A stretch of DNA of 64,000 bases from Candidatus Latescibacterota bacterium (lineage in GTDB: Bacteria > Latescibacterota > UBA2968): positions 3,264,001-3,328,000 of the forward strand of contig OZ241986.1 in assembly GCA_965204375.1 (NCBI GenBank), in the 5' to 3' direction. Made by a program: the position numbers and the translations under genes. Positions 13,249-16,005 of the stretch are shown one piece after another. Numbering within the stretch: the stretch's first letter is position 1; each line of letters opens with the position of its first letter. Under the pieces are notes generated by a model, which was not told where the DNA came from, made no database searches, and was given only the letters and a program-made list of their open reading frames with translations.

Positions 13249-13424
13249 AAATACCTCCTTTAGCCTGCAAGTATCAGCTATGCCAATTATTGAAGCTCTG
13301 GATCTGCATTCGCACTTCGTTCTATCAAATACTCACTTGAGGGTGATTTTATCAAAACTGCGCTATCCCGCCATTGCAAATATAAATCAGGTGGGATATT
13401 TTGATGAATACCTTCAATCGATTC

Positions 13425-13620
13425 TATAGGTGGTCTGATGGGAATTATATACTAAACGGCCGGTGAGGCCATTAGTATATTTCCTGCTTCGTCGTGTTTA
13501 GCCACTATATTAGCTGGTCTTACATTCACTCCACAGGCGTTCACTTGTCTTACAGATGAAGACAAGTCAATTTCGGTCACTCCAACCGTATTGTGCTGAA
13601 CATTTATTGCTGCGTTCACG
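13425..13620 (-). ncRNA. putative omega-RNA (reRNA) overlapping the tnpB 3' end; limits approximate
   Basis: Established TnpB architecture plus a strong hairpin at 13441-13484 (ggaaatatactaa-tggcc-tcacc-ggccgt-ttagtatataattcc on the minus strand). Confidence 0.45.
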
Positions 13621-14744
13621 TCTCGGTCATGGTATGCACCACACTCCGGGCACTCCCAATTACGGATATGCAATGGAAGACCACCAAGGACATGCCCACA
13701 TACATGACACGTTTTACTACTCGGATAGTATGCATTGAGTTTCTTTACTCTTCGTCCATACCACTTGCCTTTGTATTCCAACATGCGTACAAACTCCGAC
13801 CAGGACACATCACCGATCAGTCGGGCAAGTCGTCGGTTTTTCATCATATTTCTTACACGTAATGTCTCTACACCGATAGCTTGGCTCTCACGTATCAGGC
13901 GTGTTGATAACTTGTGTAAAAAATATCTCCGACTATCCGTAATCTTTGCATATATGCGAGCAACATTACGTCTTGCTTTTTCCCTATTTTTCGATCCCTT
14001 TTTTCGCCGGGACAACGTACGTTGCGCTCTACGTAGCTGCTTAAAGTGTTTATCAAAAAAGCGCGGATTATCTACCTTCTCACCACTGCTCAATATCGTA
14101 TGGTAGGTTAATCCCAAGTCTATACCTATTTTGGTATCAATGGGATCCAGTTGCTTAATAGGCTCTATGACGCCGATACTCACAAAATACCTTCCCAAGC
14201 GGTCTTTCGTTACTGTCATATTACGTAATTCACAGGCTTCTGATAGTTTCTTATGAAATCGTACCTTTATATCCCCATCTATCTTTTGTAACTTTACACC
14301 GCGTTCTGTCACCTTACACCGTGTCCGGTCATAACGGATACTCTGCTTATTACTCTTACTCTTAAAACGAGGCTTTCTGCTCTGCTTATTAAAAAACCGC
14401 TCATAACTATCCTTCAAAATACGTAACGACTCTTGTAACGCCCCCGCAGATACCTCATTCAACCATCCCTTATCCGGCTCTTTTTTTATCGCTGTCAATT
14501 CTTTTATCAATTCTTCATGACTCACACTACGTCCCAACTCTTTATATGATTTTTCTTTCCGCTCCAAACCGTGATTATACACATACCGGACGCACCCAAA
14601 TGTCTTACTTAACATCTGTACCTGATACTTATTCGGATACAAACGATACTTATAGCCGCGCTGCACTCTCACTACACTCATCTTCTATGACCTCAAAAAT
14701 TAACAACAAAAATACACACTAAACCCCAGCCCTTTTGTATATAA
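13445..14744 (-). mobile_element. 1300-bp tnpB-only element bounded by imperfect inverted repeats
   Basis: 13445-13465 ttatatactaaacggccggtg matches the reverse complement of 14724-14744 (ttatatacaaaagggctgggg) at 17/21. No transposase inside. Confidence 0.7.
13452..14681 (-). CDS. tnpB: RNA-guided endonuclease TnpB
   Basis: N-terminal YKYRLYP...FGCVRYVYN, RuvC-I GIDLG, RuvC-II VETL, CHVC/CPEC zinc finger and RuvC-III DRDVNAA. D-E-D triad intact. Confidence 0.97.
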   Translation of the reverse strand: MSVVRVQRGYKYRLYPNKYQVQMLSKTFGCVRYVYNHGLERKEKSYKELGRSVSHEELIKELTAIKKEPDKGWLNEVSAGALQESLRILKDSYERFFNKQSRKPRFKSKSNKQSIRYDRTRCKVTERGVKLQKIDGDIKVRFHKKLSEACELRNMTVTKDRLGRYFVSIGVIEPIKQLDPIDTKIGIDLGLTYHTILSSGEKVDNPRFFDKHFKQLRRAQRTLSRRKKGSKNREKARRNVARIYAKITDSRRYFLHKLSTRLIRESQAIGVETLRVRNMMKNRRLARLIGDVSWSEFVRMLEYKGKWYGRRVKKLNAYYPSSKTCHVCGHVLGGLPLHIRNWECPECGAYHDRDVNAAINVQHNTVGVTEIDLSSSVRQVNACGVNVRPANIVAKHDEAGNILMASPAV

Positions 14745-16005
14745 GTCTCTTTGTTTTGTACAATCTCTGAAGCATATTATCCGTTTTTGTGAGAGCTGGA
14801 CTCATAGCAGTTGCTTTTGTTAAAGTATGTGCAAATAATCTACCCGGTGAAGTGCGCTTCGTTTCTCCAAAACCATAATTAACCAGTAAATGCACTGCAA
14901 AAATCTCTGCTAATAAAGGGGGAATCGCATTTCCTATCTGCTTGATCCTCTCTGAAGTATTTCCTTGAAATCTGAACCAATCGGGAAATGTTTGTATTCG
15001 AGCGCATTCACGCAAAGTTAATGGGCGATTGTCTTCTGGATGTATAAATTCTCTTATAGCAGCACCTGTGATAGTTAAACTCGGTTCGTCAAAAATCAAT
15101 CGCTTAATTCCCGATGGCGCACCTCCTCGTCTTTCCGTGGGTGTTCCATCCATAACACGTCGATTGGCTCTTCTTCTAAATGATTCATGATGAAGCGATT
15201 CTGGCAGATCCTTCATCGATTGCCCCGGTTTTAAATTTTTAATTCTCTCAAGTTGGACACCCTCAATTTTGGGTGTAAAGTGATCATATAATTTTTTATT
15301 TCCATCACGCAGTTGTTCTTCCCACTCATTTTTGGGCTTGTTGCTGTAACAGATAGGACTGCTCTTATCCAGTGTCGGATTGGGAAGCTCTCCAATCGTA
15401 TGTCTAAGTGTAACATCGGCATTCTTAAAAATGCGACCATACACAGGCACAATTGGTTCTGGCAAATTAAATTCCATACCCCGGCTATTTCCAATAACGA
15501 AAGTTCTCTTTCGTCTTTGTGGTATCCCGTATTCCTGTGCATAAATTTTATCAATTCTTATCGAATATCCCAATTTGATAAAGGCTCTTGCTGCTTCATA
15601 GACATATATACCACCTTTAGCCGTAAGCAGACCCTCAACATTTTCCATAATAAACCATTTGGGACGTAAGATGGCTAAGGCGTTGACGTAATGCTTCAAT
15701 AATCCATTTCTTGGATCGTCCCAAAACCGCATACCCGCTGTGCTAAAGCCCTGACATGGAGGTCCACCAATAAGAATATCCAACTCACCCGTTTTTAACT
15801 TCAAATTTTTAAGAAGTTTTTCAAAATCACAAGATATAATGTCCCCCATTTCACATTGGGTATCAGGAAAGTTATGTCTGTAAGTTTCCACAGCATTTTC
15901 GTTTATATCTATTGCGTAGAGAATATTATAACCAGCGCGTTTGAATCCCAAAGAGCAACCGCCTGCGCCTGCAAAGAGACTAATAGCTAAAGGCTTGGCA
16001 TCCAT
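14719..16005 (-). CDS. DNA (cytosine-5) methyltransferase, orphan
   Basis: SLFAGAGG, GPPCQGFS, ENV, QRRKR, RECARIQTFP and QIGNAIPP. The last 8-9 codons fall inside the tnpB element end. Confidence 0.95.
   Translation of the reverse strand: MDAKPLAISLFAGAGGCSLGFKRAGYNILYAIDINENAVETYRHNFPDTQCEMGDIISCDFEKLLKNLKLKTGELDILIGGPPCQGFSTAGMRFWDDPRNGLLKHYVNALAILRPKWFIMENVEGLLTAKGGIYVYEAARAFIKLGYSIRIDKIYAQEYGIPQRRKRTFVIGNSRGMEFNLPEPIVPVYGRIFKNADVTLRHTIGELPNPTLDKSSPICYSNKPKNEWEEQLRDGNKKLYDHFTPKIEGVQLERIKNLKPGQSMKDLPESLHHESFRRRANRRVMDGTPTERRGGAPSGIKRLIFDEPSLTITGAAIREFIHPEDNRPLTLRECARIQTFPDWFRFQGNTSERIKQIGNAIPPLLAEIFAVHLLVNYGFGETKRTSPGRLFAHTLTKATAMSPALTKTDNMLQRLYKTKRLIYKRAGV

Follow-up and report, generated by a model that had tools for sequence, protein, structure and literature searches.

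Introduction

TnpB nucleases are thought to stay with Y1 and serine-recombinase elements, whose scarless excision leaves a target for restorative homing. TnpB carried by cut-and-paste DDE elements is rare in prokaryotes, and such carriage is common for the eukaryotic Fanzors. One prokaryotic DDE family, IS1595, is a relative of the eukaryotic Merlin transposons; in ISfinder, its ISNwi1 subgroup has ends of the form ggnnatTAT and carries passenger genes. Here we describe a tnpB gene and the element around it in a 64,000-nucleotide (nt) stretch of the genome of a Candidatus Latescibacterota bacterium (assembly GCA_965204375.1, contig OZ241986.1, positions 3,264,001 to 3,328,000 of the forward strand). 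This whole stretch is called the window, and coordinates given without a prefix refer to it. Judging from sequence comparisons, positions 13440-14749 are likely a non-autonomous member of an IS1595-family (DDE, zinc-ribbon) group that acquired a classical, catalytically intact, ISDra2-like tnpB.

Partnerships of this kind have already been described for other transposon families. The accessible part of Altae-Tran et al. 2023 (PMC10691335) reports TnpB in six DDE-associated branches, each of which has inverted terminal repeats, places the tnpB 3' end within 250 bp of the transposon end, and describes solo TnpBs whose flanking ends are almost the same as those of elements with a transposase. The novelty implied by a first-pass annotation, which a model had made from the letters of the window without database searches, was thus overstated. 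In the present case the partner is IS1595, and both the family and the boundaries differ from those first read. The name IS1595 occurs 0 times in the main text of PMC10691335, whose supplements may name it among DDE-1 to DDE-5. A 2026 review (PMC13565253) gives, in its available part, ISL2, IS630 and IS1031 as TnpB partners, and a full-text literature search combining TnpB and IS1595 returned nothing on this topic, as judged by titles and the beginnings of abstracts. In eukaryotes, Fanzor genes were captured by transposons with terminal inverted repeats (TIRs), often non-autonomous ones, according to the available part of Bao and Jurka 2013 (PMC3627910); in that same part Merlin occurs 0 times, and Merlin/IS1595 is not among the superfamilies named.

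The window element shares with branches DDE-1 to DDE-6 (DDE-6 being IS630-linked) and with the trans-mobilised solo TnpBs the placement of a prokaryotic TnpB between symmetrical DDE-element inverted repeats. As in the TnpBs of Altae-Tran et al., the tnpB 3' end is near the transposon end, and a solo tnpB lies between ends like those of transposase elements. Unlike in those branches, the partner belongs to the IS1595 family and makes 8-bp duplications, and the TnpB is plainly ISDra2-like. The features given for IS1595 in the available part of PMC8101967 are an 8-bp target-site duplication, a zinc finger and a DDE transposase. The group studied here agrees with that family in its ends beginning with GG, its 8-bp duplications, its transposases with an N-terminal zinc ribbon and a DDE_Tnp_IS1595 domain, and its cargo and miniature inverted-repeat transposable element (MITE) derivatives. 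The window element departs from the family, however, in that it lacks a transposase, carries an RNA-guided nuclease as cargo and has its predicted RNA scaffold fused to the right repeat. With the IS1341-type elements and the TnpB-omega-RNA system of ISDra2 it has in common the protein family, the size, the catalytic residues, a scaffold overlapping the 3' end of the gene and a guide expected from the flank. Those elements lack inverted repeats and duplications and need a Y1 TnpA and a target-adjacent motif (TAM) beside the left end, whereas the window family has inverted repeats, is flanked by 8-bp duplications in part of its copies and lacks a Y1 partner. Finally, it resembles the captured Fanzors in being a TnpB-type nuclease carried as cargo by DDE elements with TIRs, but its host is prokaryotic.

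The tnpB gene and the extent of the element

The tnpB gene (13452-14681, minus strand, 409 amino acids, aa) is open and retains the RuvC D-E-D triad and the zinc finger, as established by domain search, alignment and structure match. Pfam recognises HTH_OrfB_IS605 (E = 2.7e-18), OrfB_IS605, which covers the RuvC part (E = 9.9e-28), and the zinc-ribbon domain Cas12f1-like_TNB (E = 6.6e-26). The protein scores 338 bits on the NCBIfam model guided_TnpB (NF040570), the cut-off of which is 100, and residues 8-391 align to the ISDra2 TnpB structure 8h1j (E = 4e-81). The triad residues D188, E272 and D354 sit in the motifs GIDLG, VETL and HDRDVNAA, which align to the ISDra2-like structure, and they are invariant across a six-sequence family alignment; the intact triad read in the first-pass annotation is thereby borne out. 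Ten other TnpB paralogues of the same genome share 30-37% identity with this protein. (This genome is designated G000; other G numbers denote other genomes, including sisters of the genus, and L numbers denote loci or elements.) When the protein was searched against 53 genomes of the order, only 7 of the 20 other genomes of the window's genus, and none outside this genus, gave matches at E <= 1e-80.

The window flanks align to G035, G033, G051, G047 and G043 until 13439 on one side and until 14748-14750 on the other, and between the corresponding points the sister genomes hold 931-933 nt. A sponge-metagenome contig from run X4 joins 13439 to 14750 via 933 other letters, and loose contig ends at 13439/13440 occur in runs X4, X6 and X18. 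Metagenome and RNA runs X4-X23 were sampled as small shares and four were compared with the window, so that uncovered stretches carry no meaning. Since flank homology and the contig joint end at these points, the element is placed at 13440-14749 (1310 bp, minus strand). The comparison of copies, which had been proposed as the way to fix the boundaries, therefore moves them 5 nt further out on each side than the 13445-14744 first annotated. The TA-containing edges that had been noticed there are internal to the repeat and are not a target duplication. The tnpB gene occupies the element, with 68 nt ahead of its ATG and 12 nt past its stop codon, and the element DNA is single-copy in G000.

The right end begins GGGAATTATATAC and the left end GAGACTTATATAC; of their 24 outer bases, 19 agree. 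The right-end TIR (13440-13463, plus strand, GGGAATTATATACTAAACGGCCGG) holds the tnpB stop codon (13452-13454), as had been annotated, and its terminal 13-mer is identical to IS1595-type termini. The left-end TIR (14726-14749, minus strand, GAGACTTATATACAAAAGGGCTGG) has a tip, GAGAC, unlike the GGGAC of the family; the closest sisters (L013-L015) read GGGACTTATATAC there. Set against empty alleles, the window's left tip seems to have lost its first two G together with an adjacent deletion. A repeat search returned arms at 13442-13463 and 14726-14747 (22 nt, 82% complementary), and the earlier count of 17 identities in 21-bp inverted repeats holds by eye.

Sister elements and remnants

Seven further tnpB-only elements with the same ends (L013-L019, 1.29-1.38 kb) are present in sister genomes. 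Their proteins are 88-90% (L013, L014 and L015), 58% (L016) and 49-52% (L017, L018 and L019) identical to the window TnpB, and each of the seven has GGGA(A/C/T)TTATATAC at its two ends, inverted with respect to each other. The inner 10 nt of the repeats vary among subfamilies yet match between both ends of each element, that is, they co-vary. Over the first 24 bases, with the ends of L019 left out of the scoring, the two ends share 20-21 bases in five elements and 15 in L017, beside the 19 of the window. By a strict ungapped score the six sisters that were scored reached 14-21 (L013-L016 and L018) or 8 (L017). A distant set of 80 metagenomic relatives with 41-47% identity was examined in the same way; 18 were dropped, having less than 150 nt upstream or less than 120 nt downstream, and the 62 testable loci were without such a repeat, their best scores being 7-11. 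When more close copies were sought, the genome contigs gave only two that were already known and the metagenome scan gave only the relatives of 41-47% identity.

Beyond the window, at G000:C1:4985677-4985790, lies an internal-deletion remnant (~110 nt) of an L013-type tnpB element. It is made up of the 5' untranslated region and the first few codons, followed directly by ...TAATATAATTCCC, and is 84-88% identical to L013. Homologous remnants stand at the same locus in G033, G034, G035, G037, G038, G039, G040, G041, G046 and G047, so that the remnant is found once per genome in 11 of the 21 genus genomes searched. Because it is fixed at one locus in these 11 genomes, the family of tnpB elements predates much of the genus.

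IS1595-type transposons with the same termini

The terminal 13-mer GGGAHTTATATAC was found in 19 of the 21 genus genomes, while a reversed-pattern control gave 0-1 matches per genome. G043 has 69 matches, mainly plus/minus pairs about 1.24 kb apart. Twenty of these matches were retrieved and are copies of one insertion sequence (IS) with ~35-bp inverted repeats and an open reading frame (ORF) of 313 aa, which combines Zn_ribbon_IS1595 (PF12760) with DDE_Tnp_IS1595 (PF12762), matches NF033547 and has 38 matches in G043. The same termini bound MITEs of 183 bp in G045, the 1.28-kb element L216, which has an unknown ORF of 345 aa, and transposons of 4.4-9.8 kb that carry IS1595 transposases and restriction-modification-like cargo (L240, L241 and L242). 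The outer 13 bases of the window element agree with the termini of L211, L240, L241 and L242 at 13 of 13 positions for the right end and at 11 of 13 for the left end. Thirty-two elements with these termini but without tnpB were inspected: 25 are flanked by perfect 8-bp target duplications and 28 by duplications matching in at least 7 of 8 positions, and the duplicated sites are A/T-rich.

The partner family is assigned to IS1595 because of the Zn_ribbon_IS1595 and DDE_Tnp_IS1595 domains of its transposases and because of the 8-bp duplications. A DDE transposase with the same TIR, the search for which had been recommended, thus exists in the same genus and is of IS1595 type. As to the reading first given, a non-autonomous TIR element carrying TnpB is upheld, as its termini are common to DDE transposons; its likening to IS630/Tc1/mariner elements with TA duplications is not. 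This second part was rejected since the TA-containing octamer is 5 nt inside the true ends, the duplications of the family are 8 bp long and the transposases are of IS1595 type.

The group has a second, independent TnpB passenger. L238 (G045:C1:2874281-2877619) is a 2.7-kb element in which an IS607-type tnpA and a tnpB, coding for a serine recombinase of 191 aa with a MerR helix-turn-helix (HTH) and a TnpB of 511 aa, stand between perfect 24-bp IS1595-type repeats with the duplication TTATTTTT. The inner repeat of L242, L238 and L216, ...CAAAGTGGCCGG, resembles that of the window subfamily. The genus therefore offers a compact natural series with the same ends, formed by an autonomous IS, MITEs, transposons with defence-gene cargo, an IS607 tnpA-tnpB passenger and several tnpB-only elements, and on this series the role of an RNA-guided nuclease within a DDE element can be studied.

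Four IS1595-type transposase genes lie in the window's own genome, three of them open and one interrupted by a single stop codon; their identity to the L240 transposase is 75-79%. Two of the open genes belong to identical copies of an IS1595-type cargo element of 3395 bp (G000:C1:3520770-3524164 and 4398607-4402001), with repeats GGGGATTATGTAG...; each copy encodes a 321-aa transposase and two unknown ORFs, and the copies are flanked by the 8-bp duplications TAAAACCG and CCCAAAAT. Elements holding only tnpB would be moved in trans by an IS1595-type transposase.

An ordinary IS1341-type (tnpB-only IS200/IS605) element, moved by a Y1 TnpA, is what the protein by itself might lead one to expect, the apparent TIR then being a likeness of left and right hairpins. 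ISDra2 TnpB, to which the window TnpB is close, is a Y1-associated enzyme, and the window protein reaches 411.7 bits on the NCBIfam model IS200_TnpB, narrowly under its cut-off of 425. The inner arm of the right-end hairpin also matches the left end in direct orientation, and five of the eight tnpB elements are without target duplications. We nevertheless regard this explanation as very improbable. A search for Y1_Tnp (PF01797) gave 0 matches in G000, G042 and G040, and tblastn gave 0 matches to Y1 genes beside the 80 distant tnpB loci, using four Y1 queries (one a 67-aa fragment) and with at least 600 nt upstream at 50 of the loci. A hairpin is evident at the right end only. The termini are common to IS1595 transposase elements, MITEs and cargo transposons with 8-bp duplications; three of the tnpB elements (L015, L018 and L019) show 8-bp duplications themselves; and the 62 testable distant relatives lack the repeat.

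One candidate for a Y1 element sharing the end was considered and rejected. L167 (G048:C1:3033015-3036242, about 1347-2020) is a degenerate IS200-like Y1 element that abuts a 16-nt remnant of an IS1595-type repeat, and its homology to the intact IS200-like copy L159 stops 16 nt before the end. A Y1 TnpA element with the same ends, the finding that the first-pass annotation had named as speaking against its proposal, was thus not encountered, L167 merely adjoining a repeat remnant. The core idea of that annotation is supported, since IS1595-family DDE transposons have the same termini and no Y1 element does.

Further observations concern the 13-mer and its carriers. In G000 its over-representation had been read as that of a promoter, and this was dropped when the pattern search showed paired, duplication-flanked elements. 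At G000:C1:654886 and 1668556 the 13-mer is preceded by the same ~60 nt, including a sigma-54-like box (TTGGCATAATTTTTGC), and the sequences diverge after it. G043 (L201-L220, L241-L244) shows a burst of the IS1595-type IS, many of the transposase matches having single TGA stops, and also holds two 9.8-kb copies with restriction-modification-like cargo.

Target sites and missing host DNA

Among the eight tnpB elements, a perfect 8-bp duplication is seen in one and some form of duplication in three. L015 has the perfect 8/8 duplication TTTGTTAA and L019 a duplication of 7/8. L018 lies between two copies of AATGTGAT; other genomes have a single AATATAAT there, and 5 extra bases stand at the left junction of L018, as by a slip. 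A clean empty site for L015 was sought in G033 and G047 and was not obtained, as the intergenic region differs in both. In five of the eight elements host DNA is missing with respect to sister genomes: 931 nt in the window, 701 nt in L013, ~775 nt in L014, 42 nt in L016 and 25 nt in L017. The window copy is without a duplication because these ~931 nt of host DNA are missing beside the element. As causes of the missing DNA, we weighed self-cutting by TnpB, a deletion that the transposase makes next to the element, and recombination of two copies; none of them is backed by the data here.

The site of L013 and L014 (region of G000:C1:4708570-4709937) is variable in the genus, with 701-2225 nt between conserved flanks across genomes, and it adjoins a 480-aa ORF resembling AAA ATPases. 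About 375 nt to its left stands an old solo repeat-like sequence (GGAAATTATATACAAAACG), and the left junction of L014 falls inside this solo repeat. The target of L017 (G047 L145 and G040 L146, around 1440-1515) lies in the loop between the two 11-bp arms of an inverted repeat, CCTTGTCGTCA...TGACGACAAGG; the 25 missing nt include the left one of these arms.

Predicted omega RNA, guide and TAM

The last 161 nt of the element (13440-13600, minus strand) overlap the 3' end of tnpB and are predicted, from fold energy and covariation, to form an omega-RNA-like scaffold. Their minimum free energy is -45.7 kcal/mol (z = -3.44), and 0 of 200 shuffles were as stable. In the consensus fold of nine family members, compensatory changes occur in 3 of the 14 pairs. 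The final hairpin (13447-13480) pairs the right repeat, as 3' arm, with an upstream copy, in agreement with the earlier description of this repeat as one arm of a hairpin, and AAUUCCC stays unpaired next to the flank; the last 13 nt are the same in every family member. Rfam gave a full-length but sub-threshold match to RAGATH-18 at 13481-13537 (28.1 bits against a gathering score of 44.9). In the sponge metatranscriptome run X18, a relative is represented by a separate 131-nt contig on 13465-13594 with a word depth of 402, against 18-28 for contigs of the tnpB body, and two DNA runs show no such step in depth. This depth is a weak hint of an omega RNA.

The omega RNA would be transcribed through the right repeat, and the guide would be the DNA just outside the element, from 13439 downwards. 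As the covarying fold extends into the right repeat, the first base of the guide would be 13439 (ATCAGACC...), 5 nt downstream of the 13444 that had been proposed. The predicted guide-template flank, the first bases past the element end, is 13420-13439 (minus strand, ATCAGACCACCTATAGAATC).

With such a guide, TnpB would cut element-free alleles carrying the matching flank, perhaps beside a TAM of the form (R)TAT. In the element-free or ancestral allele, TAT forms the three bases 5' of the flank-matched sequence in all four close-subfamily copies: AAATAT/ATCAG for the window (from sister genomes), CCATAT/ATACT for L013, TCGTAT/AATTA for L014, and TGATAT before the duplication of L015. As a control, TAT stands on 3 of 56 sides beside the duplications of elements without TnpB. 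The sample is small, and L013 and L014 share one locus, with different junctions. The occurrence of TAT in 4/4 copies and the replacement of 25-931 nt in five of eight elements would fit a homing process in which wild-type alleles become element alleles and the deletion is passed on with them. One may go further and speculate that a TnpB captured by an IS1595/Merlin-type lineage, with its last omega-RNA hairpin fused to the right repeat, decides by cutting element-free alleles, and not through DDE transposition, which copies persist; we think that this stronger proposal is rather unlikely to be right. The TAT bias and the missing target DNA amount to two concrete and testable predictions on TAM-dependent spread.

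The role of the flank as guide also bears on a nested arrangement, in which a classical tnpB element would sit inside an IS1595-type MITE. The omega RNA would then end before the outer repeat, and the guide would be a fixed repeat sequence, or there would be none. Any capture must have started as an insertion, and L238 has its IS607-type tnpA and tnpB between the same repeats with ~500 nt to spare on each side; the invariance of the last 13 nt in all family members would also be in keeping with nesting. Against this, the stop codon of the window tnpB is only 12 nt from the element end, and the scaffold and last hairpin enter the repeat, of which 7 unpaired nt remain. Since the conserved scaffold and the last hairpin run into the repeat, a separate IS605 right end would not fit in. 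The enrichment of TAT (4/4 versus 3/56) is, moreover, expected only if the flank is the guide. We consider nesting improbable.

Weight of the evidence

Several observations tell against the proposed IS1595-type membership. Taken alone, the window repeat has a strict ungapped score of 10, a value reached by 33 of 300 shuffles and so within chance; as it is not beyond chance by itself, its reality rests on the comparison with the sisters. The window copy has no target duplication, and its left tip is GAGAC. Perfect duplications flank 1 of 8 tnpB elements and 25 of 32 others (Fisher p = 0.0012, in a test that kinship among the elements makes generous), and the host DNA missing at five of the eight tnpB elements is not explained by simple DDE insertion. 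The repeats of the two IS1595-type copies examined in G000 match 10 of the 13 outer bases only. Among the elements found, none has both an IS1595 transposase and this tnpB, and in G043, with its 38 transposase matches, no tnpB of the family appears at E <= 1e-80. As to the RNA, the evidence consists of contigs that stem from relatives sampled elsewhere.

The window copy itself is probably stranded and immobile, given the ~931 nt replaced, the lack of a duplication, the lost bases of the left tip and the different repeats of the G000 transposases. It could be asked whether the family as a whole is a decaying relic, with repeats and tnpB lacking present mobile function and a likeness to IS1595 that is historical only. 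It would agree with this that G000 has a single copy, that this copy has a damaged left tip and lacks a duplication, and that no transposase repeat of the genome matches it; the remnant fixed at one locus in 11/21 genus genomes points to an old family. The ORF, however, is open with all catalytic residues, sister copies of 88-90% identity are found at different sites in three other species, and related copies with other flanks, as well as contigs from RNA libraries, are present in sponge metagenomes. A relic is compatible with the preferred explanation as far as the window copy goes, but not for the family, and as an account in its own right it appears highly unlikely.

Neighbouring genes

On one side, the element adjoins the remnant of a 350-aa putative restriction endonuclease gene, of which the last 50 codons and the stop remain (13287-13439, minus strand, coordinates counted by hand). 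On the other lies a gene for a C-5 cytosine DNA methyltransferase (14719-16005, minus strand; DNA_methylase, E = 2.7e-70), the last 10 codons and stop of which now come from the left end of the element. The C-terminus of the methyltransferase reads ...LYKTKRLIYKRAGV in the window, against the native ...LYKRKNPQLSLFG of G035. In sister genomes the 350-aa gene starts 5 nt after the methyltransferase gene, and the 931-933 nt lost in the window are most of the 350-aa gene. Its product has a weak match to RE_ApaLI (E = 0.025, below the cut-off) and nothing in NCBIfam, and it is named a putative restriction endonuclease from this match and from its position beside the methyltransferase. In G046 (locus L051, around 2103-2106) the same gene and 97 nt of flank are lost with no mobile element in their place; since G046 lost it in this way, the loss of the putative restriction-enzyme gene is recurrent.

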